A stretch of 64,000 bases of DNA from Thermodesulfobacteriota bacterium (GTDB lineage Bacteria; Desulfobacterota; Desulfobacteria; Desulfobacterales; C00003060): NCBI GenBank assembly GCA_034189385.1, contig JAXHVD010000003.1:128001-192000 (forward strand). The letters run 5' to 3'. The position numbers and the translations under genes are program-made. Positions 30,453 to 47,076 of this stretch are shown in pieces. Under the pieces are notes generated by a model, which worked only from the letters and a program-made list of their open reading frames with translations, did no database searches and was not told the DNA's origin. Positions within the stretch are counted from its first letter, which is position 1. Each line of letters begins with the position of its first letter.

Positions 30453-30532
30453 CCATGACAGACAAACGACTCGGTATTCATTACCCAAGGCGCTCTCTGC
30501 ATCCACACCACGGGTAGGGTACAACACTTCTT

Positions 30533-30573
30533 ATTACTGTATTTCGGCACGAAAAATACAGTCTTCACCCCAT
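30533..30573 (+). promoter_or_regulatory. Island motif copy 1 (ATTAC-N16-AAATACA-N6-ACCCCAT)
   Basis: One of four aligned copies; upstream of the 30730 gene. Confidence 0.65.
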
Positions 30574-30729
30574 TTACATCTGACCCCACAAACCATAATT
30601 TTCAACCTGTACGGTGGTTCACAAAGATAGAAGGGAGGGATGGAAGTACCTGAGTTGGGCATCAACAAGAGGCTTTGATGAAGGTGAATGGACGAGACAA
30701 GCAGTCAACAAACAGAGGAGAAGGGAAAA

Positions 30730-31041
30730 ATGGACGTAAAAGACTATTGTGGTTCTATGAGCACGGAACTGATGGCTTGGAAGGCGAAAATGTACGACAT
30801 CACGCGCAGACTGGACAAATTGGGAAGCGCGGATAAAGAAAAGGTGCTTTCGCAAGTGGAGGACATGCATATCCTTGTGACGGAAATGGGTGACAGAATC
30901 GATAAGCTCAACCGGGAATGCCCTTCCGAATGGAGCCCGGACAAGAATGCCATCGATAATGCCCATACAGACATGCGTGCCAAATACGAGAGCACCATGG
31001 AGTTCATCGGAAAGGCTGCTCCCGTATCAGTCCCCGGCTAA
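30730..31041 (+). CDS. Conserved-looking helical hypothetical protein
   Basis: RBS-rich region before ATG; helical/coiled-coil pattern, YC...EL..WKAK.YD...ECP.EW. Confidence 0.75.
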   Translation: MDVKDYCGSMSTELMAWKAKMYDITRRLDKLGSADKEKVLSQVEDMHILVTEMGDRIDKLNRECPSEWSPDKNAIDNAHTDMRAKYESTMEFIGKAAPVSVPG

Positions 31042-31093
31042 AAGAAGGGTCCTGAAAGGGGCGGACAGAGAGACAAAGGAGGGAGATGCATAC

Positions 31094-31156
31094 ATGAAGA
31101 TCAAGAAGATAAGAAAGACTGCCAAAGGTCTGTGCAAGTGCAAGCGTTCCTGCTAG
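31094..31156 (+). CDS. Putative 20-aa basic Cys-rich peptide MKIKKIRKTAKGLCKCKRSC
   Basis: AAGGAGGGAG 8 nt upstream; lies between the 30730 gene and an intrinsic terminator. Confidence 0.5.
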   Translation: MKIKKIRKTAKGLCKCKRSC

Positions 31157-31254
31157 CATGTGTGGCTGTTGCCATAATACCTGTAAGTGCCTGAGATCGA
31201 CAATTCATTAGAAGACGAGGTGGAAAGATTCTCGGGCCTCGACAAATGAACAGG

Positions 31255-31282
31255 GCGGAGTCCACAGGACTCCGCTTTTTTT
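31255..31282 (+). terminator. Rho-independent terminator
   Basis: GCGGAGTCC-aca-GGACTCCGC followed by T7. Confidence 0.85.
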
Positions 31283-31431
31283 GTCCAATGCAACGACAGA
31301 GAAGGACTGACACCGTCTCGCTAACACGTCTATGTATCCCCTTTTCCGTTTCTGAAGGATAGGGCTTAAACCTGAGACCCATTAGCTGTCTAGACGTTGG
31401 GACATACCCACACAGACCGAAGAGGTGGACC

Positions 31432-31839
31432 ATGACCTTGTCCTTTTACCTGAAGTTGTATGTGCTCACGATACCGGTCTTCTTTGCCATCGACATCCTA
31501 TGGCTCGGCATAGCAGCCAAAGACTTCTACCAAAAACACCTGGGTTCCCTTTTTCGCCCCAAGGTGGACTGGACCGCCGCCATTGTTTTCTATCTTATCT
31601 TTATCGTTGGCATTCTGTTCTTCGCTGTTGTGCCGGCATTGGAAAGAGGCGCCTGGACGAGAGCGGTCATCTGGGGGGGGCTCTTTGGTTTCTTTACCTA
31701 CGCGACCTATGACCTGACAAACCTTGCCACCTTAAAAGACTGGCCCGTGAAGGTGGTCGTGGTGGACATGATCTGGGGCATCTTCCTCTGCAGTACTGTT
31801 TCGGCCATCAGCTTTCACATCGGCAAATGGCTCGGTTGA
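31432..31839 (+). CDS. DUF2177 family membrane protein
   Basis: ID.LWLG, G.FG..TYATYDLTN.ATLK.WP....VD..WG. Confidence 0.92.
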   Translation: MTLSFYLKLYVLTIPVFFAIDILWLGIAAKDFYQKHLGSLFRPKVDWTAAIVFYLIFIVGILFFAVVPALERGAWTRAVIWGGLFGFFTYATYDLTNLATLKDWPVKVVVVDMIWGIFLCSTVSAISFHIGKWLG

Positions 31840-32043
31840 CGACCCCTGTCTTTGGGGCAAGACGCATCCAGCCCTGCAGATGGTTGTGTGCCTATTCTTT
31901 ATGCTTGGGCTATGGATCGTACCCGCTCCTCATGACACATGGAGAGGATTGTCCAAGGGGCAGACGTCACAGCGGCCATGTTTGCCCTCGGGCTGGGTCA
32001 ACACCGCATCAATAATAACCTTGACTCTCCTACTGGGGAATGG

Positions 32044-33474
32044 ATGACGGCCCATTTGCAACAACGCGAAGCAAATCCCCAAGCCCTCGAACAGCCTGTT
32101 TCATGGCCCAAAAGGCTGGCTTACGCTGCGCCAGCGTTCGCGCTGGCCGTCGTGGGCATTCCTGTTTACGTCTACATGCCCAAATTCTACATCGATGTAG
32201 TGGGCGTGCACATCACCGTTTTGGGTTATTTGGTCCTGGGCATGCGGGTTTTTGACGCTTTAACGGATCCCGCCATTGGCTTTCTATCGGACCGCACGAA
32301 GACACCCTTTGGCAGACGACGCCCCTTTATGGCCTTGGGATCCATCGCCTTGGCCGGGGCCATCTATCTGCTTTTCAACCCTCCCCACGGCTCCCCAACC
32401 TTTGAAACCGTGTGGTTCGGGATTCTCATGTTCGCCCTCTTTCTTTTCTGGACACTAGTGGTGGTCCCCTATGAATCCCTCGGCCCAGAGATCACCTTTG
32501 ACTATCACGAAAGGACAACGCTCTTTAGTCTCAGAGACGGGGCCCTCATTGCTGGCACCCTGGTGGCTGCAAGCTCCCCGGCAGGCATCACCTATCTCTT
32601 TGATCTGCCAGGTGATGCCGCAGGAGAAAGGGCCAAGTTCTTCTGGATATCCCTTTGTTATGTGCCCCTTGTCATAGGGCTCTGCTGGTGGTGCGTTGTG
32701 GCCACTCAGGAGATGGAACAAGGGATTCCGAGCCCGTCGTTTCGCCTTGAAAAAGGCATGAAAACCATGGCTCGAAACCGTCCCTTCGTGATCCTCTTGG
32801 TATCTTACACGGTGAGTGCCTTTGGGAACAACCTGCCGGCCACCTTGATTCTCTTCTACGTGGAATATGTCCTCCAATCACAACAGGCCGATCTGTTTCT
32901 GCTTCTGTACTTTGTTGTTGGAATCCTGTTCCTTCCAGGGTGGATTCAGGTGTCTCACAAAATGGGCAAGAAGAGGGCCTGGATCCTCTCCATGGCCCTC
33001 AATACCGGGGCCTTTGTAGGGGTTTTCTTCCTGGGTCCCGGGGACGCTCACCTCTACGGTGTATTGGTGTGCCTCTCCGGTATTGGCTTTGGTGCGACCC
33101 TGGCGCTGCCGTCGGCCATGCAAGCAGACGTGATTGATTACGACGAACTGCTTTCCGGAAAAAGACGCGAGGGCCAGTATGTGGGATTCTGGTCTGTTTC
33201 CAAGAAGCTGGCCGCAGCGCTTGGCGTGGGCGCCGCTCTCGCCATCTTGGGCACGATGGGATATGAACCGGGAACGGAGCAATCGCCCAAAGTGATGCTG
33301 TCCCTTCGGGTACTGTATGCCTTGGTCCCCTCCCTGTGCAATCTGGCAGCCTTGCTCATTGCCTTGGCCTATCCTATCGATTTGCTTGCTCACGAAAAGA
33401 TCAAACAGGCGATCGCCGAGAGAAAGTCGGGCCGTCCGGTGATCGATCCTATCAGGGAGAAACAATTGCCATGA
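32044..33474 (+). CDS. MFS transporter, glycoside-pentoside-hexuronide (MelB-like) family
   Basis: R.FDA.TDP.IG.LSDRT.T.FGRRRPF, ADVIDYDE...G.RREG.Y; about 12 TM. Confidence 0.92.
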   Translation: MTAHLQQREANPQALEQPVSWPKRLAYAAPAFALAVVGIPVYVYMPKFYIDVVGVHITVLGYLVLGMRVFDALTDPAIGFLSDRTKTPFGRRRPFMALGSIALAGAIYLLFNPPHGSPTFETVWFGILMFALFLFWTLVVVPYESLGPEITFDYHERTTLFSLRDGALIAGTLVAASSPAGITYLFDLPGDAAGERAKFFWISLCYVPLVIGLCWWCVVATQEMEQGIPSPSFRLEKGMKTMARNRPFVILLVSYTVSAFGNNLPATLILFYVEYVLQSQQADLFLLLYFVVGILFLPGWIQVSHKMGKKRAWILSMALNTGAFVGVFFLGPGDAHLYGVLVCLSGIGFGATLALPSAMQADVIDYDELLSGKRREGQYVGFWSVSKKLAAALGVGAALAILGTMGYEPGTEQSPKVMLSLRVLYALVPSLCNLAALLIALAYPIDLLAHEKIKQAIAERKSGRPVIDPIREKQLP

Positions 33475-34262
33475 ATCTGACGACACTTCTCTTGATAACG
33501 AACCTGACAGCGGCACTGGCCTACATGGCCTGCCTCTGGCCCGTGAGTCTCCTAAAAAAGGATGCGAGTATTGCAGACATTTTCTGGGGCCTCGGATTTG
33601 TGATGATCGCCTGGCTGAGTTTTTTTCTGACGGATGGATATGTGGTGAGGAAAATGCTCATCGTCTCCCTTACGAGCATCTGGGGAATCCGCCTGTTTCT
33701 CCACATATTGCTGCGAAACAAGGGAAAAGGGGAAGACCCCCGTTATGTGGCCATGCGAAAAAGCCGCGGCAAGAAGTTCTGGTGGGTCAGCCTGTTCACC
33801 GTTTTTCTCTTGCAAGGTTTCCTACTCTGGGTCGTCTCCATGCCCCTTCAGCTCGGTCAGTTGGCCCCCCTTCCCGCGGCATTCACGTGGCTGGATGGGC
33901 TCGGCCTCTTCATTTGGACGGTGGGATTCACCTTCGAAGCGGTCGGCGACTGGCAACTCGCTCGGTTTCTAAAGAACCCTGAAAACCGGGGATCTGTGAT
34001 GAATAGAGGTCTTTGGGCTTACAGCAGACACCCCAACTATTTTGGCGAATCATTGATCTGGTGGGGTGTATACGTCATCGCCTTAGCTGCGCCTGGAACC
34101 TTTTGGGGCATCATTGGTCCGGCAACCATCACGTTCCTTTTGTTGAAAGTATCGGGCGTGCCCATGCTTGAGGAAACCCTTCGGGAGCAGCCTGAATACA
34201 GGGCCTACATAGAGAAAACGAGCGCCTTCTTCCCCTGGTTTCCACGCAAAGACAAACCATGA
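33471..34262 (+). CDS. DUF1295 / steroid 5-alpha-reductase-like membrane protein
   Basis: D..WG, GEDPRY, E..GD.QL..F, GLW.YSRHPNYFGE...WWG; ATGA overlap with the MFS stop. Confidence 0.92.
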   Translation: MNLTTLLLITNLTAALAYMACLWPVSLLKKDASIADIFWGLGFVMIAWLSFFLTDGYVVRKMLIVSLTSIWGIRLFLHILLRNKGKGEDPRYVAMRKSRGKKFWWVSLFTVFLLQGFLLWVVSMPLQLGQLAPLPAAFTWLDGLGLFIWTVGFTFEAVGDWQLARFLKNPENRGSVMNRGLWAYSRHPNYFGESLIWWGVYVIALAAPGTFWGIIGPATITFLLLKVSGVPMLEETLREQPEYRAYIEKTSAFFPWFPRKDKP

Positions 34263-34421
34263 AACATCTCATCGAATGGGCGGAGAAGGGGCTTCTGCCC
34301 GTTGGACACTGTGCCGTGGCCTCAACGGTGGCGCATCTTTTTCATGGCCTGCGCCGAGCCGTGGGGGTTTGAAAAGGGTCAGCCATGGCTGGTGTCCCAT
34401 TATCGGCTCCGCAAGGGATAG
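34259..34421 (+). pseudogene. Internally deleted SAM-dependent methyltransferase (Cfa/coclaurine-N-MT-like) remnant
   Basis: N-terminus [14 protein letters not shown] joined out of frame to the family C-terminus [33 protein letters not shown]-coupled to DUF1295. Confidence 0.75.
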
Positions 34422-34459
34422 ACAGGGCATCTAAAAGCGCCTCTGTAAAATCGGGAGGC

Positions 34460-35779
34460 TCATGTGCTTTTTCCGGAAGAAGGAGGCAGTTCGGGCAAAA
34501 TGGGCGTGCTGCGACAAAACGGCTTTGCCATAAGCATTTGCACATTGCCCAGATAGCGTTCTTCAAATCCCCCTTCGCAGTAACAAAGGTAATACTCCCA
34601 CAGCCGGATAAAGGTATCAGAGTAGCCCAAGGCACGGACCTGTTCGATATTTTCAAAGAAGCGCTGCCGCCATGCCCGCAGCGTTTTCGCATAGTGGGGG
34701 GTTAAATCCTCCAAGTGAACGACGCGCAGATCCGTGGAGCGCGCCACAGCCAGGCACATGGCGGTAAGGGACGGAATGCAGCTGCCAGGGAAGATATAGC
34801 GTTTGACGAAATCAACGGATCGCTTGTGCTGATCGTATACGGCATCTGCGATGGTGATGGCCTGAAGAAGCATCATGCCGTCTCTTTTCAAGAGCCTGCT
34901 GCAACACTGAAAAAAGGTCTCCAGAAATTGATGGCCAACCGCTTCGATCATCTCAATGGAAACCACTTTGTCATAGAGGCCCTCCAGATCGCGATAGTCT
35001 TTCAAAAGGAGGGTGACCCGGTCGCCCAATCCCTCGCCGTCAATGTATTCTTTGGCCCATTCGAATTGGGCGGGGGAAATGGTGGTGGTGGTGACCCGAC
35101 AGCCGTAATGCTGGGCCGCATGCATGGCAAACCCGCCCCATCCGGTGCCGATCTCCAGGACATGATCAGAGGATTGTAGATCCAGTTTCAGGCAAATGCG
35201 GTCATATTTGGCCACGGAGGCCTCTCTGAGGGTGGACGCCTCCGTTTCGAAAATCCCGCACGAATAGGTCATGGTATCATCCAAAAAGAGCTGGTAGAAA
35301 TCGTTTCCCAGGTCGTAGTGTGCCACGATATTGGCCCTGCTCCCTGCCCTTGTATTTTTGTTGAGCCAGTGAAACCACTGATGTATGGGCTCCATGAACC
35401 GTCCCCATCCGCTATCCATCTTCTCAAAGATGTGGCGGTTTAGAACCATGATCCGTATGACCATGGTCAAGTCATCGGCGGACCAGTCGCCAGCCATGTA
35501 AGCCTCAGCCGCTCCGATGCTGCCGCCCCATAGGGCCCTTCGGTAAAAACGGGGGTGGTGGATCGTCACGACCGCACGAAGGGGAAAATCTTCTGAAGCC
35601 TTTCCAAAGGCAAGGCGCTCGCCATTATCCTCCAGGAGAAGCTCACCAATGTCCACATCCTCCAATAGGGCCATCACCATCCTTTTGGCCAGGCGATTCA
35701 GAGGCCCCCGGACTAAGGCATGAGGTGGAGCCGTTCTGTCCGTCTCCGCGGGAATGATGGATGTTCTCATGATGTTCAT
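34460..35779 (-). CDS. cfa: Cyclopropane-fatty-acyl-phospholipid synthase family methyltransferase
   Basis: NI.AHYDLGNDFY, M.YSC, LEIGTGWGG, SIEMIEAVG, YIFPG, W.YYL.YCEGGF. Confidence 0.92.
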   Translation of the reverse strand: MNIMRTSIIPAETDRTAPPHALVRGPLNRLAKRMVMALLEDVDIGELLLEDNGERLAFGKASEDFPLRAVVTIHHPRFYRRALWGGSIGAAEAYMAGDWSADDLTMVIRIMVLNRHIFEKMDSGWGRFMEPIHQWFHWLNKNTRAGSRANIVAHYDLGNDFYQLFLDDTMTYSCGIFETEASTLREASVAKYDRICLKLDLQSSDHVLEIGTGWGGFAMHAAQHYGCRVTTTTISPAQFEWAKEYIDGEGLGDRVTLLLKDYRDLEGLYDKVVSIEMIEAVGHQFLETFFQCCSRLLKRDGMMLLQAITIADAVYDQHKRSVDFVKRYIFPGSCIPSLTAMCLAVARSTDLRVVHLEDLTPHYAKTLRAWRQRFFENIEQVRALGYSDTFIRLWEYYLCYCEGGFEERYLGNVQMLMAKPFCRSTPILPELPPSSGKST

Positions 35780-36549
35780 GCCTCCTTGCCAGACAGTCGC
35801 TTGGCAGGATGCGTGTAAACCGGGGCCCCTTTCCACTTGAGGCGAAGGGCCTGCCAGTATATCATGGCCACGACCTTCAATGTCATGGGGGGGTAGGACA
35901 GCAACACCCGTGCGAGGTTGTTGCTATTCAGCTCGCGCCGCTCCAAAGAGAGGGTGGCGTCAAAAAGCTTCTGCCTGACATCATGGAGGTTGAAATGAAC
36001 CCGAATCTTCTGGTCCGGCTCCCGAAACCGCCAGTCATAATGCATCGCCATATCCATGAAAGGCGAAACGTGGAAACTTTTCACAAACCGAAACTGCTTC
36101 CATCCCTTCAGGCCATGTTCATTCGCGGATTCTCCTAAGACATAGCAATGTTCCTCACCCCATGGGGTGTTATGGACTTCAGCGACAATCGTCTCCACCT
36201 TATTCCCGGACCCATCGTAACAGTAGTAAAAGCTCACAGGATTGAAGTTATGCCCAAAATACCTTAGGTGGGTCAGCAACCGAATGGGCCCGGAAGGACG
36301 CCCTCCGAGCTCCTCCTCCACAAGATCCCTTACCGCACGATCTAAGGGAAGGCGCGGGTCCCCCAAATGGTCCCTCCGACGGAAATAGGCTAGATTGGGT
36401 GTGCCCACAGACCAGAACAGACGGCCATCAAAAACCCCGTCCAGTTCCGAAAGGTCCAGGTACACCATGAACAGCCTGTACCAAAAGGCGTTGGTCACCG
36501 GCCGGAAACGACGGTGGCGAACATGACCCTCGTAGATGCAGCTCACCAT
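35776..36549 (-). CDS. DUF1365 family protein
   Basis: YEG.VRHRR, FNPVSFYYC, AEVHNTPWGE, K.FHVSPFM, IYWQAL.L. Confidence 0.93.
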   Translation of the reverse strand: MVSCIYEGHVRHRRFRPVTNAFWYRLFMVYLDLSELDGVFDGRLFWSVGTPNLAYFRRRDHLGDPRLPLDRAVRDLVEEELGGRPSGPIRLLTHLRYFGHNFNPVSFYYCYDGSGNKVETIVAEVHNTPWGEEHCYVLGESANEHGLKGWKQFRFVKSFHVSPFMDMAMHYDWRFREPDQKIRVHFNLHDVRQKLFDATLSLERRELNSNNLARVLLSYPPMTLKVVAMIYWQALRLKWKGAPVYTHPAKRLSGKEA

Positions 36550-36551
36550 GG

Positions 36552-37796
36552 CTAGAGCGTCTTTCCAAATGGCCGGCACACGGCAAGGGCGCTCTTCACA
36601 CCGTCCTCGTGGAAGCCAAAACCCCAATAGGCCCCGCAAAAAGAGGTGCGATTGACGCCGTTGATCTCCTCATGACCCTCCTGCGCCTTCAGGCTCTGAG
36701 GAGTGTACACCGGATGATGATAGACCATCTGGTCAATCACACGTGCGGGGTCGATTCCCCCTGGATAATTAAGCGATACACAAAACTCCACAGGGGCTTT
36801 CAGACTTTGCAGGATACTCATGTCGTAGGTGACCGCCACCCTGCCGGTGTGGGCCTTTGGCACATGGTAGTTCCAGCTCGCCCAGCACTCCCTCTTCTTG
36901 GGCAGTAACGTCTCATCGGTGTGAAGAACGGTCACGTTCTCCTGATAGGGCATGGCGCTGAGAATGCGGGCCTCTTCTTCTGAAGGGTCGGCCAGCAACG
37001 CCAGGGCCTGGTCACTGTGGGTGGCCATGACCACGTGATCAAAATGCTCGGGACCACCCCCCCCATGGACTACCTCCACGCGGTCTTCATGACGCGTTAC
37101 TCTTTTTACCGCACAGGAAAGGCGGATGCGGTCTCGAAACCCCCTGGTGAGCTCATGAACATAATTCCTGGACCCGCCCCTTATGACGAGCCACTGGGGT
37201 TGATCGGTCACGTTCAAAAACCCGTGGTTGTCAAAAAACCGGACAAAGAAACGGGCCGGAAAGTTCCAGAATTGATCAGGATCCGCAGACCAGATGGCCG
37301 CCCCCATGGGGATGATAAAGTCATGTATAAAGGCTTGGGAGTATCCCTCGGCCTTCAGATAGTCTCCCAAAGCCCTGTCATCTCCTCTCTCTCCAAGGAT
37401 TTTTTTAGACCGCCTTCTAAAGCGGAAAATGTCCAATACCATCCGGTAGAAGGCAGGCCGAAAGAGATTCTTCCTCTGGGCGAAAAGGCTATTCAATGAA
37501 CTGGGGCTATACTCCAAGCCACTTGTTTCCGACGTGACGCTGAAACTCATCTTAGACGGCTGCCAGGCAACAGCTAAGCGCTTCAAGAGTTTCAGGAAAT
37601 TTGGATAGGTCTTTTCATTGAAAACGATAAAACCGGTGTCCACGGCATAGGTTTTACCGGCCTTCTCCACATCCACGGTGTGCGTGTGGCCGCCCACATA
37701 GTCGTTGGCCTCAAAGACGGTGATCTCATGGTCCTCACAAAGAAGATAGGCGCACACCAATCCCGATATCCCTGAACCGATAATGGCAATCTTCAT
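36552..37796 (-). CDS. FAD-dependent oxidoreductase (amine-oxidase-like, COG2907 type)
   Basis: GSGISG, GGHTHT, DTGFIVFN, W.SWNY, GAYWG.GFHEDG. Confidence 0.92.
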   Translation of the reverse strand: MKIAIIGSGISGLVCAYLLCEDHEITVFEANDYVGGHTHTVDVEKAGKTYAVDTGFIVFNEKTYPNFLKLLKRLAVAWQPSKMSFSVTSETSGLEYSPSSLNSLFAQRKNLFRPAFYRMVLDIFRFRRRSKKILGERGDDRALGDYLKAEGYSQAFIHDFIIPMGAAIWSADPDQFWNFPARFFVRFFDNHGFLNVTDQPQWLVIRGGSRNYVHELTRGFRDRIRLSCAVKRVTRHEDRVEVVHGGGGPEHFDHVVMATHSDQALALLADPSEEEARILSAMPYQENVTVLHTDETLLPKKRECWASWNYHVPKAHTGRVAVTYDMSILQSLKAPVEFCVSLNYPGGIDPARVIDQMVYHHPVYTPQSLKAQEGHEEINGVNRTSFCGAYWGFGFHEDGVKSALAVCRPFGKTL

Positions 37797-37838
37797 CTCT
37801 GACTACCAAAAAGCGCTGTGGGTAGAACCATCCCTTTA

Positions 37839-38835
37839 TTATCCCGTCCCCTCTTTAACACCAGGGGCTAGGGCAGGCTTGTATATGTGGTCAGGCACCG
37901 GCCTCAGGTCCCAAACCATGCCAAGAAAGGCCATGAGCCGGAGCAGATAGTACGTGATGTCGATCTCCCACCCAAAAAAAACCCTGACGGGCCGAAATGG
38001 CATAATGGTGATGGTTGTTGTGCCATCCCTCGCCCAAGGTGATAAGTGCCAGAAGGGCGTTGTCGCGACTTGTGTCCGGGGTGTCGTATCGTCTGTTGCC
38101 GATCATATGATCCAGCGAGTTGATCGTAAAGGTTCCGTGGAACAGGGCCACAGTAGAAATCAGAAAACCCCAGACAAACATCTGCGCACCGTCTGTATTT
38201 AGCTGCGGTTGGGTCTCTGCCATCATCTCACCCAGCGCAAAGAGGGATAGGGCCAGAATAAACGGAATCACGGTGTCAAACCGGTTGATCCAGACCAGCT
38301 CTGGAAACTTGAACCAGTCTTTCACATAGCGTTTTCTCGTGGGAAAATTTCGCCTGGAGGTTATCCAGCCCACGTGGCTCCACCAAAAGCCGTGCAGAGA
38401 AGGGGAATGAATGTCTGCCTCTTGGTCGGCAAACCGGTGGTGGTGGCGATGATGGGCCGCCCACCAGAGCGGCTCCCGCTGAACAGAGGCGTTTCCGGCC
38501 ACCGCAAAGAGGAATTGCCAGAAGCGGTTGGTCTTAAAGGCACGATGGGAGAAATACCGGTGGTAGAATCCCGTGATGGCAAACATGCGTAACACATATA
38601 GCGCCAATGCCACCCCCACTGCAGTCCAGCTCCATCCCACCACAAATACCAAGAGGCAAGATAGGTGCAGAAGTGCGAATGGGGCCACCCGCAACCAGTC
38701 TATACCGGAAGCACGTTCATCCTCTGTGGCCCCTGCACCTGCTTCAGAGTCGAACCATCGGACAATCGAAAGTAGGGCATCTGAGTGACTCGTCTTCTCT
38801 CTTCGTTTTGCCTGCCTGTTCATTTTACATTTCAA
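37839..38835 (-). CDS. Delta-9-type acyl desaturase with +1 frameshift near the 3' end
   Basis: His boxes HRYFSH, HHRHHH, HNNHH; the conserved WEIDITY...LG.VWDL tail continues in another frame after a T8/G3 run at about 37971-37981. Confidence 0.85.
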
Positions 38836-38880
38836 TAGACATATTTCGCAATAAGCGTAGCACTTGAACGGAAAAAATGA

Positions 38881-38921
38881 ATAGGGTCTTATGTGTATTT
38901 AGGTGTCAAGAAGACCGTAAT
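38881..38921 (-). promoter_or_regulatory. Island motif copy 2 (ATTAC-N16-AAATACA-N6-ACCCTAT)
   Basis: Upstream of the desaturase operon, same orientation as the gene. Confidence 0.65.
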
Positions 38922-39041
38922 TTTTTTGCTTGGAATGGCCGAAAAAATGGCATATTGATAGCTGAAGCGGCTGCCTTTGTTAAATAAGGGAGGACCCGAA
39001 GGCTGAAACAGTCCGGTAATCGAAAACGCTTCATTTGCTGG

Positions 39042-39470
39042 ATGATAGGGATCTCTTTTATCCTGACGTTAGTGCAGTGTTCGGGAATCAGAAGTGACAT
39101 GATAGGTATCCTTGACGGAAGGTTTAGCCCCTGTCCTGAATCGCCCAATTGCGTTTCTTCTCAAAGCGACGATCCATCACACTTCATTGAGCCCCTGGAC
39201 TATGAAGGTTCATTGATGGCGTCTCGACAACATCTTCTAGACATCTTGAAGTCCATGCGTGGCGCAGAAGTGATCACTGAGACAGAAACCTACATCCACG
39301 CCACCTTTACGTCCCGCATCTTCCGGTTTGTAGACGATGTGGAATTCTATTTTGTTCAGGATGTCCCCGTCATCCATGTGCGATCGGCTTCTCGGGTGGG
39401 CTATTCCGATCTGGGGGTGAATCGGAAAAGGGTTGAGAAAATCCGCAAAGCTTTTAGATCGTTAACGTGA
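39042..39470 (+). CDS. DUF1499 family protein
   Basis: PCP.SPNCVSSQ, F.S..F.FVDDVEF, RSASRVG.SDLGVNR.R.E. Confidence 0.92.
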   Translation: MIGISFILTLVQCSGIRSDMIGILDGRFSPCPESPNCVSSQSDDPSHFIEPLDYEGSLMASRQHLLDILKSMRGAEVITETETYIHATFTSRIFRFVDDVEFYFVQDVPVIHVRSASRVGYSDLGVNRKRVEKIRKAFRSLT

Positions 39471-39511
39471 CCTTTCCCCGTTCTCTCATCGCCATCCCAC
39501 CTGCCTGTTTG

Positions 39512-40780
39512 TCAGACGCCCAAATCATGTATGACGGCCTCGGCGGCCTTCCCTCCGGAATAGAGCGCCCATTGAATGGACGGGACATTCTGGTATTCTC
39601 CACACACGTAGACACCCTTCCTGACACGAGGATCGACTCCCAGCGGATCAGGTGTGGGGGGGCTTTGTAGGGGCAGGCCGTGGGCGATGTAAAAGGTCTT
39701 CAACAGCCGCCAGATACGGGTTCTCTCTCCATACCAACGGGCCAGCTCTTCTCTTACATCTCTTTCAAGGGACTCTGCGTCTTCCACCGAGGCGTGGAGC
39801 ACCGTCACCACGATCAAAGACTGCCCGCGCGGCGCATAGGAGGGGGCCACATTGCTCACAACGCTCAAGTTGTTGATAAGACCGTCCCCGTCTCCATTGA
39901 TCACCAGGAGCTTATCCCGAAGGGGAGGTTCTGAAGCGGCAAAATAGAGACAATGGACCCCGCATGACGGCCCTAAGACACCTGTCTGGAGCAGTCTGCT
40001 GGCCTGCGGGCCATTCGTAGCCACGACAACACCCCGACAGGGGATGCTTGGCCCCCCCTCAAGCTTGACCCAGCCTTCGCCCACGGCATCAACGACGGTG
40101 CCAACGCGAATAGACCCTTCAGGGATGTCTGCTGCCAACTGGGACGGAATGGCGGCCATGCCTTTTGCAGGCAGTGCTGCATCTCCGAGGGCCAGTATCT
40201 TGAAGACGAATTCAAAAACCCGGCTCGATGCGGAAATGTTCGGGTCCAGGCATACGCCGCTGAAAAAAGGCCTGAAAAAGGTCTCTATCATTCTATCCGA
40301 AAAACCCTCTTTTCTAAGATAGTCCAGGGTCGGCATCTCGGCACGGCAAAAAAGGACCCGCTCGTCCAGCCGCCGTATGCGGTTGACCAGCCGAACAAGG
40401 CGCCATTTGTCTCCCGGGGTTCCCACAGGCGATAGGAGCGTGTCCAAGGCGTACCGCGGGCATCTGAGAGGGTCTGCCACACGATAGAACCTTTTTCTGA
40501 AACGGATCACTGCTCCCGAGTCAAAGGCCCGGAGCCTCAACAGGGGGTAGTTGAGGGTCTTTTTGGCTTCCGAGTAGGCCCTCTGCAACACCTGAAAACC
40601 GTGGTCCAGGACAAAACCGTCTACCCGGTCTGTCTTCAGTCGCCCCCCAATTCTGTCACAAGCTTCCAGCACGGTAACCGAAAACCCTTCTTTGGAAAGC
40701 CTCCTGGCGCAGGCCAATCCCGCGAGCCCCGCACCGACCACAATCACATCATTGGCCAGTCTGGATTTCCTTGCCTCCAT
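39512..40780 (-). CDS. FAD-dependent oxidoreductase (amine oxidase/phytoene dehydrogenase-like)
   Basis: GAGLAGL, GGR..TD..DGF.LD.GFQVL, SI..AL.SG. Confidence 0.88.
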   Translation of the reverse strand: MEARKSRLANDVIVVGAGLAGLACARRLSKEGFSVTVLEACDRIGGRLKTDRVDGFVLDHGFQVLQRAYSEAKKTLNYPLLRLRAFDSGAVIRFRKRFYRVADPLRCPRYALDTLLSPVGTPGDKWRLVRLVNRIRRLDERVLFCRAEMPTLDYLRKEGFSDRMIETFFRPFFSGVCLDPNISASSRVFEFVFKILALGDAALPAKGMAAIPSQLAADIPEGSIRVGTVVDAVGEGWVKLEGGPSIPCRGVVVATNGPQASRLLQTGVLGPSCGVHCLYFAASEPPLRDKLLVINGDGDGLINNLSVVSNVAPSYAPRGQSLIVVTVLHASVEDAESLERDVREELARWYGERTRIWRLLKTFYIAHGLPLQSPPTPDPLGVDPRVRKGVYVCGEYQNVPSIQWALYSGGKAAEAVIHDLGV

Positions 40781-40816
40781 GTCTGCCTACCTTTCCTGTT
40801 TGAATGCAGTTCATAA

Positions 40817-40857
40817 AATACCCTATTGATCATAAACAAATACACACTTTACCCCAT
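40817..40857 (+). promoter_or_regulatory. Island motif copy 3 (AATAC-N16-AAATACA-N6-ACCCCAT)
   Basis: Upstream of the peroxiredoxin-rhodanese pair. Confidence 0.65.
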
Positions 40858-40940
40858 TGTGGCCACACAAATTCCATGATTTGAAGGAGAGGGAAATCTC
40901 GCATGGCCGGTGACCTTCCGGTGATAGAGAGGGGGGTGAG

Positions 40941-41459
40941 ATGAACAGATTCATACCGTTTATCAGCATACTACTCATGGCAATCACACCGTCTTTGGCA
41001 TTGGGCCTCCATATCGGTGACACGGCCCCTGTATTCCAAGCCAGCTCTACAGAGGGAACAATCCGTCTCGTCGACTACCTGGGCAAGAAAAACGTCGTCC
41101 TGGCACTCTATTTTGCGGCTTTTACGTCTGTCTGAACGGACGAGCTGATCGCTTTCCAGCGGGATCTGGAAAAATTCGAGCACGAAGATGCTATCATTTT
41201 GGGCGTAAGCAAAGATAGTATGAAAACAAGCAAACGGTTTGCCAAGGAATACGGGATCGGTTTTCCTTTGATATCAGATAGCGACAAGAAAATCAGACGA
41301 CTCTATGGAGGAGGGCGCGTTACCTATCTCATCGACAAGAACGGCGTGATCAGATTCATTCAAAAGGGGGTCCCTGACAACAACCTGTTCCTGAAGGAAT
41401 TGAAGAGACTACGTGACGCCAACATGGCCATTCAAGAAGGGGGCAGCACAACAGATTGA
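40941..41459 (+). CDS. Selenocysteine-containing peroxiredoxin (BCP/PrxQ-like) with signal peptide
   Basis: ORFs 40941-41135 and 41199-41459 are in one frame; TGA 41133-41135 is at the peroxidatic position (FTSV-U-TDEL); hairpin TTTCCAG-cgggat-CTGGAAA at 41153-41172. Confidence 0.88.
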
Positions 41460-41537
41460 AGCGCCCTGCAGCAAGCTGTTATGCAACGGGCTCTGTTGCG
41501 GTTCAACGGAAGCATACAAAGGGAGGTGACAAGCGAC

Positions 41538-41864
41538 ATGGAAGACGCCACTATCATACGCGTTTCTGCGCAAGAGGCAAAAGAGATGGTTGAGGCAGAA
41601 TCAGGTCTGCTGGTCTGTGCCTATGATGACGAAGACAAATTCAAGCGAAATCATCTATCAGGCGCGATATCGCTTGCCGAATTCAGATCAAGACTCACAT
41701 CCATCCCCCGAGACCGAGAAATCGTCTTCTACTGTGCCTGACCCAAAGAAGCGAGTGCTGCCGGGCGCGCAGTGGAATACTTGAAGATGGGCTACGACAA
41801 TGTGAAGGTCTTGGGTGGCGGTGTCACGGGCTGGAAAGAGGCGGGATATCCCATTGAGGATTAA
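41538..41864 (+). CDS. Selenocysteine-containing rhodanese-domain protein
   Basis: IVFYCA-U(TGA 41739-41741)-PKEASA; the frame continues through the rhodanese C-terminal signature V.VL.GG..GW..AGYP to TAA; RBS GGAGG. Confidence 0.87.
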
Positions 41865-41902
41865 CGAGACTTGGGAGCCACTAGAAGGCGAGATCACGCA
41901 TC

Positions 41903-42337
41903 TTATTCGCCTTCTCCCGTAGCCGAAACGGCAGAAGGGATCTCATCCTCTAGCATGGCTGCAATGCGAACAATGGCCTGCCTGCAGACCACGACGTAAG
42001 GGGCACCGAATATTGGCACTTCAAATGTGAGGCGGCAGAGGCCTTGAGTGACCTCTTCAACCCGATGGCCCGTGGCACGAATGCCGAAGACTTCCCATGA
42101 CCAGTACCTCTCATCTTTGAAATCCGTAATGACAAAGGGGACCCACAGACCCAAGGCGGTCTTCACAAGGCCCCGAGATCCCTTTCGAATCGGACGATCT
42201 GAACAACGTACCTGAACAACAGAAGGGCCCCATGCTGGCCAATGGGTCGTGTCCGTGAGGACGTCCCAAATGGCCCTGCGTGAAGCCCTCACGCAATGGC
42301 TAATCTCAATGTGGGGAAAGTTTATTTTCGTCTTCAT
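41903..42337 (-). CDS. SRPBCC/polyketide cyclase-like (START) protein
   Basis: A....IW.VLTD...WP.WGPSV, W.W.V.G..ATGHRVE. Confidence 0.8.
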   Translation of the reverse strand: MKTKINFPHIEISHCVRASRRAIWDVLTDTTHWPAWGPSVVQVRCSDRPIRKGSRGLVKTALGLWVPFVITDFKDERYWSWEVFGIRATGHRVEEVTQGLCRLTFEVPIFGAPYVVVCRQAIVRIAAMLEDEIPSAVSATGEGE

Positions 42338-42513
42338 GTCCGCTCAAAGGGGTGCTATCTACTGTGGTGTCTGAAAAGTGCCTGCAAGAAGCAGGGCGTC
42401 GCCATCAAGGCATCTTCCCGGCTTCATGAGCATCTCCGGGACATGACCGGAGCTTGTAGCCTGGGAACACGCATGCGTTTGAATGAGCCTACCAAAGGAG
42501 ACAGCAGAATCCT

Positions 42514-43047
42514 ATGAAATACTGCAGCAACTGTGGCGCTCGGGTGACTGCTCGCATTCCCTCCGGGGATGATCGGCCCCGTTTTGTCTGTGACACCTGC
42601 CAGGTCATCCATTATGAAAACCCCAACATCGTCGTCGGGTCCATACCGGAACTTGACGACCGAATCCTTTTTTGTCGCCGTGCCATCAGACCACGTCTCG
42701 GAAAATGGACGATCCCTGCGGGCTATCTTGAAAACGGGGAGACCCTTGTGGAGGCTGCTAAACGGGAGGCCTTTGAAGAGGCCAGAGCCAAGCTCACAGA
42801 CCTGATGCCTTATGCATTACTCAACCTCACCTTTGTGAATCAGGTCTATGTCATCTTCCGCGGCCGTTTGACCGATCATGACTACCGGCCCGGCGCCGAG
42901 AGCTCAGAGGTTAAGTTGTTGGCAGAGCATGAGATTCCTTGGGACGATCTGGCCTTTTCTTCCATACGGGAGGCCCTAAAACGGTACTTCATAGACCGCA
43001 GAAAGGGGACTTTTCCTCTCCATATGGCAGACATCCAGCCTGATTAA
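42514..43047 (+). CDS. NUDIX hydrolase with N-terminal zinc ribbon
   Basis: MKYCSNCG...C..C..IHYENP; Nudix box G..E.GET..EAA.REA.EEA. Confidence 0.93.
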   Translation: MKYCSNCGARVTARIPSGDDRPRFVCDTCQVIHYENPNIVVGSIPELDDRILFCRRAIRPRLGKWTIPAGYLENGETLVEAAKREAFEEARAKLTDLMPYALLNLTFVNQVYVIFRGRLTDHDYRPGAESSEVKLLAEHEIPWDDLAFSSIREALKRYFIDRRKGTFPLHMADIQPD

Positions 43048-43058
43048 TCAAAGGCCAA

Positions 43059-43099
43059 ATTACTCCCTTTTTCAGTGCAAAATACAGTTTTTACCCCAT
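43059..43099 (+). promoter_or_regulatory. Island motif copy 4 (ATTAC-N16-AAATACA-N6-ACCCCAT)
   Basis: Upstream of the PNPOx-DUF1499-PAS-dioxygenase run. Confidence 0.65.
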
Positions 43100-43195
43100 A
43101 TGCCACCCCGGAGGTTCGTGCCATGCTCTCCCATGAGACGAAGTCTTAGATAGCAGGAAAAAAATTCCATACGATTGCCATGAGGAGGTGCTAAG

Positions 43196-43576
43196 ATGAA
43201 TCTGAAAGACTACTTTGAACAGGCTAAAGGACTCGGGGCGCTTGCTACGGCAGATTCAGAGGGAAAGGTGGATGTGGCTGTCTATTCCCGGCCCCACGTG
43301 ATGGATTCTGAGACCGTGGCCTTTGTTATGCGAGATCGCCTGACCCATCATAACCTCCAGTCCAACCCCCATGCCGCTTATCTCTTCAAGGAAGCGGGGG
43401 AAAAATACGTTGGAAAGCGGCTTTTCTTAACCAAGATTCGCGAAGAGCAGGATACTGATTTGGCTTACGAACTCAGGAGAAGAAAATACCCCGACGACAA
43501 AAAAGAACCGCTCTTCCTGGTCTTTTTTCGTATTGACCAGATCCTGCCGCTTGTGGGTCCCGGAGACGGTGAGTAG
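43196..43576 (+). CDS. Pyridoxamine 5'-phosphate oxidase-like FMN-binding protein
   Basis: LATAD.EG.V.VAVYSRP, T..NL..NP.A; RBS GAGGAGG. Confidence 0.85.
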   Translation: MNLKDYFEQAKGLGALATADSEGKVDVAVYSRPHVMDSETVAFVMRDRLTHHNLQSNPHAAYLFKEAGEKYVGKRLFLTKIREEQDTDLAYELRRRKYPDDKKEPLFLVFFRIDQILPLVGPGDGE

Positions 43577-44048
43577 GAGGCCATCATTGGGGCAGCGTTT
43601 CAGAGTCTTCTTTCACTTCCTGGCGTTGTCCCTCATGTTGTCAAACTGCTCAGCAACTAAACCAGATGATTTGGGATGTACTGACGGCAGGCTATCTCCT
43701 TGTCCAGATTCACCGAATTGCGTCTCTTCGCAGAGTTCAGACAAGGCCCACTATATAGAGCCTCTTACCTATAGGGGAACGTTGACAGAGGCCAGGAAGG
43801 CCCTAGTGTCGGTGATTGCTCGATGGCCTCACAGTGAGATAGTCCAGGCGACGGATGACTATGTCCGTGCGGAGTTCACCTCCAGGTTCTTTGGTTTTGT
43901 CGATGACGTTGAGTTTTGCATGGATGATGATCTGAACATGATTCATGTCCGATCGTCATCACGCGTGGGCTATTTTGATTTTGGGGTAAACAGAAAAAGG
44001 ATTGAGCGCCTTCGAGCCAAGTTTGCGGCACCGAGAACAGAGGATTGA
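43569..44048 (+). CDS. DUF1499 family lipoprotein (second paralogue)
   Basis: PCPDSPNCVSSQ, FVDDVEF, RS.SRVG..D.GVNR.R.E. Confidence 0.9.
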   Translation: MSRRPSLGQRFRVFFHFLALSLMLSNCSATKPDDLGCTDGRLSPCPDSPNCVSSQSSDKAHYIEPLTYRGTLTEARKALVSVIARWPHSEIVQATDDYVRAEFTSRFFGFVDDVEFCMDDDLNMIHVRSSSRVGYFDFGVNRKRIERLRAKFAAPRTED

Positions 44049-44051
44049 GAC

Positions 44052-44768
44052 ATGGCCAGAAAACCAAGTTACGAAGCGCTGCAACAGCGTGTCAAGGAAT
44101 TGGAAAAGGAAGCCGGTGAGCGCCTTCGCATGGAGCGGGAGTTGCTCAAGCTCTCCCACGCGGTGAATCATAGTCCCAGTGCCATCATGATCACAGATGC
44201 TCATGGGATCATCGAATATGTGAATCCGAAATTCGTGGACATGACCGGTTTTACCGCCCAAGAAGTCCTGGGAAAGAATGCCGGGGATTTGGGTGAACAA
44301 TCGGCTGAAGAAGAGGAGAAGATGTGGCAGGTCCTTAAGTCGGGCGGCGAGTGGCGAGGTGAATTTCTGAACAAAAAGAAAGATGGCAAACGTTACTGGG
44401 AACGGGCGTCCATTTCATCCATGAAGGACCCCGACGGTGGGATTACCCATTACGTAAAGGTGGCTGAAGACATCACGGACCTCAAACGCGCACAACAGGA
44501 GTTAAGAGAGAGCCAGGAGGCGTTATATGAACATCAAAAGCGTCTAGGGATATTGAAATTCGCCAATGACATGGCCCTCCGGCTCATGCATGAGTTGCGA
44601 AATCCACTGGTATCGATTGGTGGCTTTTCTAAAAGGATTGCCGATGGTCACTATGGGGAAGATAACTTGACCAAATACACGAAAATCATATTCGAAGAGG
44701 CCAAGAAACTCGACCAGGCCGTCAGTGAGTTGCTTGTGCAACTAGAGACTACTGCCCACAAGGCATAG
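44052..44768 (+). CDS. PAS/PAC + HisKA protein lacking an HATPase domain
   Basis: ITD..G.IEYVNP.F..MTG, W.GEF.N.KKDG, DIT; HELRNPL..IGGF; ends after the dimerisation helices. Confidence 0.8.
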   Translation: MARKPSYEALQQRVKELEKEAGERLRMERELLKLSHAVNHSPSAIMITDAHGIIEYVNPKFVDMTGFTAQEVLGKNAGDLGEQSAEEEEKMWQVLKSGGEWRGEFLNKKKDGKRYWERASISSMKDPDGGITHYVKVAEDITDLKRAQQELRESQEALYEHQKRLGILKFANDMALRLMHELRNPLVSIGGFSKRIADGHYGEDNLTKYTKIIFEEAKKLDQAVSELLVQLETTAHKA

Positions 44769-44804
44769 GATCTCTTTACCTCCTTGCTGAAGGGACAATG
44801 CCCC

Positions 44805-45581
44805 ATGACTCCAGCTGTTTTTGTCTCCCATGGCATGCCAGCCATTGCTGTCCAGCCAGAACCGACGCACTATTTTTTTCGGGAGCTTGGACAGACATTG
44901 GGTCGCCCTAAGGCTGTAGTCTGCGTTTCTGCCCATTGGGAAGCAGTCCGCCCCCTTGTGACAGGCACAAGCGCGCCGCAGACGATACACGATTTCTCCG
45001 GGCCCCCCATTCTTTTCGAAAAAGACTATCCAGCGCCTGGCAACCCGGACCTCGCCCAGGATGCAGTGGCCTTGTTGACCCAGGCGGGCATTGATGCCGC
45101 CACCGATCCTTCCCGAGGCCTTGATCATGGCGTGTGGGTGCCACTCATACTCATGTATCCGGAAGCAGATATCCCCGTGGTGCAGATTTCCGTTCAGACA
45201 GAGCTCGATCCACAGCATCATCTGAAGCTGGGAAGGGCCCTGCAACCCCTCAGAGAAGGCGGGGTATTGGTTCTGGGAAGTGGTGGTGCCACCCACAACC
45301 TGCCGGAGATACACCAATACAGAGTTCACTCCCGCCCGGCAGAGTATGCTCTAGACTTCGACACCTGGCTGGAAGAGGCCATCCTCGGGGGCCGGGAGGA
45401 TGCCCTGCTCAACTACAAAGAAGAGGGCCCTTCAGCCGCAAGGAACCATCCCTATCCTGCCGAGCACTTTTTGCCGCTCTTTGTCCCTCTCGGGGCTGCA
45501 GGGCAGGGGGCAACGGGCCGCTTACTCCACAAGGGATTCATGTATGGCGTCCTATCCATGGCCGCCTATGCCTGGGATTGA
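44805..45581 (+). CDS. Class III extradiol dioxygenase (DODA/LigB/YgiD-like)
   Basis: FVSHG.P, SAHWE, RGLDHGVWVPL, GSG..THNL, HP..EH.LPL. Confidence 0.92.
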   Translation: MTPAVFVSHGMPAIAVQPEPTHYFFRELGQTLGRPKAVVCVSAHWEAVRPLVTGTSAPQTIHDFSGPPILFEKDYPAPGNPDLAQDAVALLTQAGIDAATDPSRGLDHGVWVPLILMYPEADIPVVQISVQTELDPQHHLKLGRALQPLREGGVLVLGSGGATHNLPEIHQYRVHSRPAEYALDFDTWLEEAILGGREDALLNYKEEGPSAARNHPYPAEHFLPLFVPLGAAGQGATGRLLHKGFMYGVLSMAAYAWD

Positions 45582-45675: not shown

Positions 45676-47058
45676 CTACGCACGAGGGCCGATGTCCCCC
45701 TCAGAAAGAGACCCAATCCGGCGCACGTACGTCTCAATGTCAAACTTGCGCCGAAGCCCTGCGGCGTTCATATACCTGACCTTGCCGAAGACGGGGCGCT
45801 CAGACCAGGCCCGATCGTGTTTGCCCAAACACCACGCCACGCCGGCAAATCCGTTGGGGTCTCTTCCATCCAACTCGTACTTATTGTTCAAGTAGAGCGC
45901 CGTGCGAAAGGCTTCTTCCGGGGTTTTGCTCCACTCCAAGATCTTCTTTCCCCAGTACATCCGCATGTAGTTGTGCATCTTGCCCGTTATCACCATTTCC
46001 TGTTGCGCTGCGTTCCAGTATGGGTCGTGGGTGCGGGCCTGCTCCCACGCCTCCACATCGTATATGTACTCACGGTTGTCCTTTTCATGGGCCCTCAGGG
46101 TTTCTCTGGCCCAGCCCGGCAGTGCCTGGTACGCATCATAGTGCGGGTTGTAGTAAACAAAGTTCATGCTCAATTCTCGCCGCACGATCAGCTCTTCAAG
46201 GTACGCCTCTTTTGCTCCTTTTGGCTTGCCTCTTGCCCGGCGCACCTCGAGGCCAATCTCAACGGGAGAGATCTGCCCGAAATGGAGATACGGACTCATG
46301 TGTGAGCCATAGTCTGTACTGGGGTCGTTCCTGCGGTCCGCGTAGTATTTCAGCTTTTCCTTGATGAAGAGGTGGAGCAGCCCCATGGCCTCCTTTCTCC
46401 CGCCAGAGAAGGTCTCCACCGGAGAGACGCTTCGGTCCAGAGTGAGTCCACGGAGCGCCCCTTTCACGTCTTCCACATCCAGGCCCTCGTATGAAAGACC
46501 CAGGGAGTCTTTCTCCACAGGGGTTGATTTTAGGGAAACCAGATAGCGTTTCAGGTGCTTCTGAATCCGCGGCCGCAAGATGGCTGCAGTATAGGCCTCC
46601 TTTTCAGAAGCCACGGCAACAGGAACAACCACGTCGCTTTCCACTTGGACCACCAGACACGGGGCGTGGTCAGCCACGTGACGGCGCCACCCCTTCTGAA
46701 TCCTAAGATACCCCCTGTCGGTCACCACCATGGAGGCGTCTTTGGAAAACTGGACGGCTGCAAGCTCGGGCGAGTCACGAAGGGCTACAAACTGAATGCC
46801 CCGCTGGTAGAGTCCTTCATGAACCTCCCGGAGCCCCTGAAGCATAAAGGCGTAGTGTCTCTCATTGGCCTCAGGAAAACGGTCGGTGATGCCGAAAAGA
46901 ACGACGACCGGCCGCCTCAGTCCATTGGCTTGTCCGATGGCATACTCTAAGGCGTGGTTGAAGACCACTCTTTGAGAGGCCTGCATCCAGTAGAGGACAT
47001 AGCGCCCCTTTTGGATGGGGCGATCATTCAATGGTTCCACCCGTTCCCGTTGAATCAT
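45676..47058 (-). CDS. phr: Class II CPD DNA photolyase
   Basis: VLYWM...QR, SPYLHFGQIS, EEL.VRRELS.NF, GKMHNYMRMYWGKKILEW, DGRDPNG. Confidence 0.95.
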   Translation of the reverse strand: MIQRERVEPLNDRPIQKGRYVLYWMQASQRVVFNHALEYAIGQANGLRRPVVVLFGITDRFPEANERHYAFMLQGLREVHEGLYQRGIQFVALRDSPELAAVQFSKDASMVVTDRGYLRIQKGWRRHVADHAPCLVVQVESDVVVPVAVASEKEAYTAAILRPRIQKHLKRYLVSLKSTPVEKDSLGLSYEGLDVEDVKGALRGLTLDRSVSPVETFSGGRKEAMGLLHLFIKEKLKYYADRRNDPSTDYGSHMSPYLHFGQISPVEIGLEVRRARGKPKGAKEAYLEELIVRRELSMNFVYYNPHYDAYQALPGWARETLRAHEKDNREYIYDVEAWEQARTHDPYWNAAQQEMVITGKMHNYMRMYWGKKILEWSKTPEEAFRTALYLNNKYELDGRDPNGFAGVAWCLGKHDRAWSERPVFGKVRYMNAAGLRRKFDIETYVRRIGSLSEGDIGPRA

Positions 47059-47076
47059 GAGGCCCCCTGTCACGGA

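Follow-up and report, generated by a model that had tools for sequence, protein, structure and literature searches.

A 64,000-nt stretch of a Thermodesulfobacteriota bacterium genome (assembly GCA_034189385.1, contig JAXHVD010000003.1, positions 128,001 to 192,000; here called the window and numbered from its first nucleotide) carries four copies of a 44-bp sequence, the box, which we consider the putative operator of a stress regulon. The source genome (G000) comprises 4.13 Mb and is 90.4% complete, and the window is part of its contig C23. A preliminary description of the window had noted four identically spaced copies of the pattern A[AT]TAC-N16-AAATACA-N6-ACCC[CT]AT, each intergenic and facing the downstream gene. 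An exact pattern search recovered all four in this arrangement, at 30533(+), 38921(-), 40817(+), and 43059(+), and no others in the window.

Copy 1 (30532..30575, plus strand, 45.7 bits) consists of a distal half-site (30532-30540) and a 7-4-7 palindrome, ATACAGT-CTTC-ACCCCAT (30556-30573). The candidate promoter on the same strand has a -35-like TTTACA over the box end and the -10 candidates CATAAT/TAATTT (30594-30601). The first gene behind it (30730..31041, plus strand) encodes a 103-aa protein weakly similar to the sll1863 stress-protein family (below the cut-off of NF052504, E 3e-6), and homologues of this gene have a box at four of seven congener loci. A terminator-like hairpin (31252..31288, plus strand) is the likely end of this unit; two tiny Cys-rich frames (20 and 17 aa, 31093-31212) lie between the 103-aa gene and the hairpin, and the DUF2177-MFS-DUF1295 genes past it have no box of their own. 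Copy 2 (38879..38922, minus strand, 29.7 bits) is followed by TACGCT, a -10 with a TG extension (38859-38854, minus strand), and faces an operon for a fatty-acid desaturase, an FAD oxidoreductase, a DUF1365 protein, and cyclopropane fatty acid synthase (34460..38835, minus strand). None of 18 other Desulfobacterales loci of this operon has a box, so its recruitment looks local to this genome.

Copy 3 (40816..40859, plus strand, 35.4 bits; CATGAT at 40875-40880) precedes genes for an AhpC/TSA peroxiredoxin-like protein (40941..41459, plus strand), which has an in-frame UGA at 41133-41135, and a rhodanese-like protein (41481..41864, plus strand; NF041203, E 2e-17, below cut-off), whose in-frame UGA (41739-41741) lies in an FYCAU motif. 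Reading through the UGA gives complete AhpC/TSA (E 1.9e-28) and rhodanese (E 1e-11) domains; both codons are likely to specify selenocysteine, in agreement with the two selenoproteins proposed earlier. The 3' SECIS-like hairpins of both genes are no more stable than shuffled sequences. Copy 4 (43058..43101, plus strand, 41.0 bits), with the -10 CATGCT and a TG extension (43122-43127, plus strand), precedes a run of PNPOx-like, DUF1499, PAS-HisKA, and LigB dioxygenase genes (43196..45581, plus strand). The PAS-HisKA protein (44052-44768) has neither an ATPase domain nor the cysteine motif of a LOV signature, and it may act within the regulon as a phosphatase or kinase modulator. In three congeners the PNPOx-like gene lies behind the 103-aa gene and the two share one box, which would support coregulation of the units behind copies 1 and 4. 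The neighboring photolyase and photolyase-related (DPRP) genes (45676-48630), present here in an apparent anaerobe, have no box. No Rfam family matched in the window.

To scan beyond the window, the genome and its relatives were searched with position weight matrices, as the preliminary description had suggested. The exact pattern has six matches in the whole genome. A matrix built from the four window copies only detected 11 further sites of at least 23 bits (best score in the reversed genome, 20.0), and the final matrix detected 20 sites of at least 26 bits, compared with a reversed-genome best of 20.9. Many relatives have copies too: the strict pattern matched 159 times in 61 genomes (three times in the reversed control) and was present in 25 of 36 congeners, with as many as 32 copies in one genome, and in five of 24 other families of the same order. 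In one separate draw of 400 phylum genomes, 34 had the pattern. Equal frequency in coding DNA or random orientation had been named as findings that would speak against a regulatory motif; instead, 19 of the 20 genome sites are intergenic (vs. 16% of all genome 44-mers), and the first downstream gene lies on the box strand at 53 of 59 loci. The single remaining site overlaps a short, doubtful ORF call (gene calls beyond the window come from a dicodon script, and their start codons are approximate). The proposal of a stress regulon is supported, except that it would not comprise four units but would be genome wide and patchily distributed across the phylum.

Alignment of the 159 distinct sites, which include many orthologous promoters of the regulator locus discussed below, revealed the anatomy of the box. 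Positions 1-9 form a distal half-site, AAATACRGT, behind which come a T-rich stretch and a spacer that is not conserved. Positions 23-44, AAATACAGT-N4-ACCCYATTT, form an imperfect palindrome with a 7-4-7 core (ATACAGT-N4-ACCCYAT), the geometry of SsrB and EsrB sites. The AT core of this proximal unit is self-complementary at 96-100% of sites, and its right half occurs in variants (CCTAT, CTTAT, and CTGTAT) which mirror the left half. The distal unit has no right half, and its half-site lies exactly 22 bp upstream of the proximal one: when spacings of 14-38 bp were allowed, 136 of 143 distal-half matches were at 22, as expected from the two cores initially seen 22 bp apart.

A TAnnnT sequence peaks at positions 65-70, 20 nt downstream of the box (47 of 159 sites; 12 at the next best offset). 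Among the 91 sites without the GTAAA of the regulator locus, TAnnnT is found at the peak offset in 29 and one base earlier in 14. A weak -35 (TTTACC/TTGATT) occupies positions 42-47, overlapping the box end, with the -10 17 nt behind it; the dyad would accordingly lie near -43 and the distal half-site near -72. The box abuts the -35 of what is predicted to be a sigma70-type promoter, and the activator-type site abutting -35 suggested initially is supported. The -10-like hexamers noted behind all four window copies are present; those of copies 1, 2, and 4 fit the family-wide -10 (positions 64/65-70), but the CATGAT of copy 3 is 5 nt closer and does not fit. A generic sigma70 scan of the window called none of the four box promoters.

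No cognate regulator had been seen in the window, and the candidate is indeed located on another contig. Among nine LuxR-type helix-turn-helix matches in the genome, one belongs to a NarL/FixJ-family response regulator with REC and GerE domains (PF00072+PF00196; G000:C11:47437-48132). This gene is divergent from a box which faces a single-domain receiver, and it is convergently followed by the gene for a 961-aa PAS/GAF-HisKA_3 kinase; a REC and LuxR-type helix-turn-helix protein and a HisKA_3 kinase are thus linked to the box. The divergent box is present at 19 of 21 orthologue loci (at least 61% identity), and the two misses have less than 300 nt of flank. In a second, overlapping set, comprising 74 of the 80 best matches in the genome collection (the six others, with less than 300 nt of flank, were dropped), the box was found at 62 loci from Desulfobacterales, Syntrophaceae, Desulfomonilaceae, and others, compared with 0 of 1,480 shuffles above the threshold. 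When the regulator-locus site was left out of the training set, a matrix for the proximal unit placed 82 of 103 loci with a KTVEKHR-type recognition helix above the 99th percentile of shuffles.

The regulator was detected in 72 of the 400 phylum genomes (seven candidates were scored per genome). It accompanies the pattern in 29 of the 34 pattern-bearing genomes and in all 17 genomes with at least three boxes. In a tree of 105 proteins, a single clade (support 0.90) contained the C11 protein and all 67 box-bearing regulators and excluded the six other NarL-type proteins encoded in this genome. The closest records to the C11 regulator are from Desulfobacterota, mostly Desulfobacterales; a plasmid search gave only ~47% homologues. 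The ~55% identical homologues (L084 and L085), considered as box-free paralogue controls, had to be rejected as such, since the distal half at 22 bp is all that is missing from them; the proximal palindrome, the -10, and an unchanged recognition helix are retained. With regard to named families, the best NCBIfam score was 197 of 242 bits (PRK15369) and none of the 25 families listed was over its cut-off; assignment as an orthologue of NarL, SsrB, UvrY/GacA, ErdR/CrbR, MctR, or FixJ was rejected, no equivalog cut-off being reached. The closest solved DNA-binding domains to its C-terminal domain are those of EsrB and SsrB (top PDB matches). A second kinase on C3, whose core is 61% identical to the C11 kinase, is also followed by a box and a receiver. 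This kinase subfamily has one to seven copies in 23 of 40 genomes (two copies here); it was not found in 12 box-free genomes, nor in G022, G029, G049, G114, and G402.

Based on these observations, the box, which heads about twenty operons in this genome, probably binds the C11 regulator, which would switch on an oxygen/general-stress regulon. We propose that cytoplasmic PAS/GAF HisKA_3 kinases (two here, up to seven elsewhere) phosphorylate the regulator and that one dimer on the palindrome at about -43 recruits sigma70 polymerase to a poor -35. Another protomer or dimer, bound to the same face of the DNA two helical turns upstream, may sharpen the response. Encoded next to the regulator, the box-driven single-domain receiver would likely drain or relay phosphate as feedback. 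The signal would probably be oxygen or redox.

The main alternative, to which we assign a small but appreciable probability, is that the box is read by a different factor, either a NarL-type paralogue or some unrelated activator, and that the C11 locus is only a conserved member of the regulon. The box faces away from the regulator gene and toward the single-domain receiver, some box-bearing genomes have no detected regulator orthologue, and NarL-type paralogues on C12 have nearby sites of a related 44-bp class that ends in CAATTG, with one site scoring in both classes. However, box and regulator occur together across several orders and classes, the loci of C12-type and other NarL clades have no box of the class described here, and no regulator gene of the CRP/FNR, LytTR, or B12-binding type was found at full length in this genome (HTH_Crp_2 gave short partial matches only, and B12-binding LitR/CarH, PF02607, was not found).

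An alternative-sigma promoter, also raised in the preliminary description, with CCCCATNT as an RpoH-type -10 or with an ECF sigma factor, appears improbable. RpoH promoters have a CTTGAA-like -35 13-17 nt before CCCCAT, and the box does contain a CCCCAT resembling the RpoH -10. Moreover, this assembly lacks the group-1/2 sigma genes, and congeners encode RpoD and a 329-aa sigma factor with a QRKLFF stretch which we take to be RpoH-box-like. On the other hand, a CTTGAA-like -35 at that distance precedes only two of 63 CCCCAT sites, and the RpoH reading was rejected on this basis. In addition, the right half varies in a way that mirrors the left half, a TAnnnT -10 distinct from the box is found 17 nt behind the box-end -35, a structured RNA element described below begins 28-35 nt behind the box, and a sigma factor of 329-aa size is also present in the box-free G010. 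As a separate observation, neither an RpoD nor an RpoH gene is assembled here, although congeners have RpoD and an RpoH-like sigma; no obvious RpoS was found in the four congeners checked.

It is equally improbable that this regulator works mostly by repression, masking the -35 until displaced under stress. The palindrome does overlap the first bases of the -35 hexamer, but these hexamers are poor matches, and box-free copies of the RNA element often have a strong TTGAC -35 instead. The fixed position just upstream of -35 is, moreover, that of the activator CrbR in the accessible text of PMC5715377. A LytTR-type direct-repeat binder, suggested initially by the two AAATACRGT repeats at a fixed 22-bp period, can practically be dismissed, because no LytTR domain (PF04397) was found in the 90.4% complete genome and in the proximal unit the repeat is inverted, the third, inverted half-site being the best-conserved part of the box.

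Several observations weigh against binding by the C11 regulator or against a stress regulon. Forty-three of the 72 regulator-bearing phylum genomes have no strict pattern match, and among 18 loci scored from these 43 (20 were fetched), six reach at least 20 bits, with none of five in family f92. Conversely, no orthologue was found on re-search in five pattern-bearing phylum genomes, all draft assemblies, or in G016, G017, G022, and G049, draft genomes from the order and genus which have boxes; in G009 the orthologue lies at a contig end. The genomes are kin, so the co-occurrence of box and regulator is not an independent statistic, and the four NarL-type paralogues on C12 amid a related box class make cross-talk possible. 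In the window, copy 3 lacks a -10 at the normal position. Genes for NADH dehydrogenase, efflux, and porins are among many targets with no obvious link to stress, the box covers one of seven Usp and none of ten Hsp20 homologues in this genome, and neither kinase matched a known heme or Fe-S sensor family above cut-off.

The predicted targets include the main oxygen-defense genes of this genome. In this genome the box precedes katG, a rubrerythrin-desulfoferrodoxin-rubredoxin-flavodiiron-peroxiredoxin-NiSOD cluster, one Usp, and a small rubredoxin-like protein, as well as an RND pump, an SbtA precursor, two single-domain receivers, and the four window units. In the cluster (G000:C19:26323-31676), the box heads genes for rubrerythrin, desulfoferrodoxin, rubredoxin, a flavodiiron-like protein, a two-ORF peroxiredoxin, Ni-SOD, and a flavodoxin-like protein; the split of the peroxiredoxin into two ORFs possibly reflects UGA read-through. 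The SbtA-family thio(seleno)oxazole RiPP precursor lies at G000:C25:13202-13438 (TIGR04081, over cut-off). In relatives, for which 75 of 99 listed proteins were scanned, the box was found before genes for NiSOD, Fe-SOD, catalase, KatG, Tpx, FMN reductase, and cytochrome bd with Rrf2, and also before YflT, YceI, DUF883, a DegP-like protease, glycogen phosphorylase, further kinases and receivers, NADH dehydrogenase, and porins. At the regulator locus of relatives, Fur/PerR, desulfoferrodoxin, Usp, or Hsp20 often lies behind the receiver.

Light-specific regulation was rejected as a weak reading, as neither the photolyase/DPRP operon nor any of the 18 other desaturase-cfa loci has a box. By what we take to be the membership criteria of the ChrR-sigmaE/LitR light and singlet-oxygen regulon, this system was rejected as well: TIGR02451 was not over cut-off, PF02607 was not found, and the photolyase operon is without a box.

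A ~100-nt structured noncoding element is present in 12 copies in this genome (C29:530-641 [L003], C41:3565-3676, C41:5074-5186, C22:37255-37366, C3:100072-100179, and seven more) and in 3-19 copies in five congeners. It was detected in 31 of 36 congeners and in none of 44 other genomes, indicating that it is genus specific, and it has no Rfam match. In the alignment 97.5% of cells are paired and five of 23 pairs are compensatory, a modest covariation. The element starts 28-35 nt behind a box in 16 of 35 copies (five of 12 here), in agreement with the predicted +1 of the box promoter; several other copies follow a TTGAC..TA promoter, and the element also occurs in box-free genomes. It is likely a small RNA, and it may instead be a repeat element. 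A CsrB-type relay is expected to include a csrA gene and many GGA loops. Such a GacA/UvrY-RsmY/Z (CsrB) relay was rejected for this element, since csrA (PF02599) was not found in the genome and the element has one invariant GGA.

Additional box classes were observed in the same genome. About 14 sites share the 44-bp layout with a different sequence (AAATCAGGT...CACAATTG); they are located at G000:C12:165000-248000, among four paralogous NarL-type regulators, and also on C14, C16, C1, and C2, before hydrogenase, multiheme cytochrome, sulfatase-like, and exopolysaccharide genes. This second class likely represents a sister regulon. Sites at C62:67898(+), C10:91944(-), C22:5661(-), and C6:7347(+) may form a third class with the 44-bp layout (AAGTAC..AAAATACCTAATTATAGAAATTG).

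Taken together, the genomic evidence points to a real, undescribed regulon and operator, the predicted binding mode being of a known kind, that of a NarL-family activator site. A literature search, with subscription journals mostly, RegPrecise, and supplements outside its scope, revealed no description of the motif or regulon. Oxygen-defense control in strictly anaerobic Desulfobacterota has been covered mainly by PerR predictions in Desulfovibrio and Geobacter (PMC545781). A broader and more tentative hypothesis, which we regard as somewhat less probable than its negation, is that sulfate reducers and syntrophs, patchily across the phylum, run their oxygen/general stress response via one NarL-type regulator rather than RpoS, sigmaB, or EcfG, fed by a family of cytoplasmic PAS kinases, damped by single-domain receivers, and with a multicopy ~100-nt small RNA output in this genus. 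If the C11 regulator does bind the box, uncultured Desulfobacterales, Syntrophaceae, and Desulfomonilaceae would gain a candidate regulator, kinases, a 44-bp operator, and a target list, all of which could be tested without culturing the hosts. Anaerobes would possess an undescribed stress switch with katG and the rubrerythrin-SOR-rubredoxin-flavodiiron cluster at the head of its targets, and the box would place many unknown genes and a new RNA family under predicted stress control.

The most similar known binding sites are those of EsrB and SsrB. In the accessible texts, the SsrB site is an 18-bp 7-4-7 palindrome (PMC2837388), and the EsrB site is ATCAGGT-gatt-ACCCGAT (PMC6592360), an 18-mer which scores above 99.98% of random 18-mers on the box matrix. 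These regulators share with the C11 regulator a NarL-family helix-turn-helix (recognition sequence KTVETHR vs. KTVEKHR), and their sites share with the box the 18-bp tail-to-tail 7-4-7 arrangement and a nearly identical right half (ACCCGAT/ACmTTA vs. ACCCYAT and ACCTTAT here). In contrast, the left half here is ATACAGT, a third half-site is always placed 22 bp upstream, and the -10 lies at a fixed distance, whereas no strict spacing is reported for SsrB (PMC2837388). The kinases here are HisKA_3 PAS/GAF proteins, stress genes rather than secretion systems are the predicted targets, and the C11 protein is not an orthologue.

A similar promoter position is known for CrbR of Pseudomonas fluorescens (ACTU motif), which activates from -52 to -36 as far as the accessible text of PMC5715377 describes it. 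Like the proposed C11 activator, CrbR is a LuxR/NarL-type activator with an imperfect inverted repeat just before an RpoD promoter; CrbS/CrbR differ in having their own site sequence (e.g. TACTACCATCGTCGAAT), an acetate regulon, and an SLC5-fused kinase, and the C11 regulator scores 60 bits against the ErdR family (cut-off 390). The staphylococcal NreB/NreC pair, compared here by its description in the accessible text of PMC8139620, also pairs a sensor kinase of the cytoplasm with a NarL-type regulator that acts at a palindrome, in oxygen-related control. However, NreC turns on nitrate respiration under anoxia from a GC-rich palindrome, and the C11 and C3 kinases matched no Fe-S sensor family above cut-off.

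The regulators previously predicted for delta-proteobacteria (PerR, HcpR, CooA, and Fur) have targets which overlap with those of the box, including rbr, ahpC, katG, roo, and perR (Rodionov 2004, PMC545781). None of the consensus sequences listed in the accessible part of that paper resembles the box, and PerR is a one-component repressor; membership in a PerR regulon was rejected on comparing the box by eye with the palindromes printed in its Table 7. No conserved element was found there for the Desulfovibrio Rbo/Rub/Roo operon, and the accessible text of a D. vulgaris regulator map (PMC3333781), apart from its figure logos, contains no NarL-family motif.

In the general stress response of alphaproteobacteria (EcfG-NepR-PhyR), an ECF sigma factor is released by partner switching. 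This response resembles the proposed system in its several PAS kinases, its single-domain receivers, its broad protective regulon with a catalase-peroxidase and, possibly, its small RNA. The output in the Desulfobacterota system, in contrast, would be a DNA-binding response regulator acting at sigma70 promoters.

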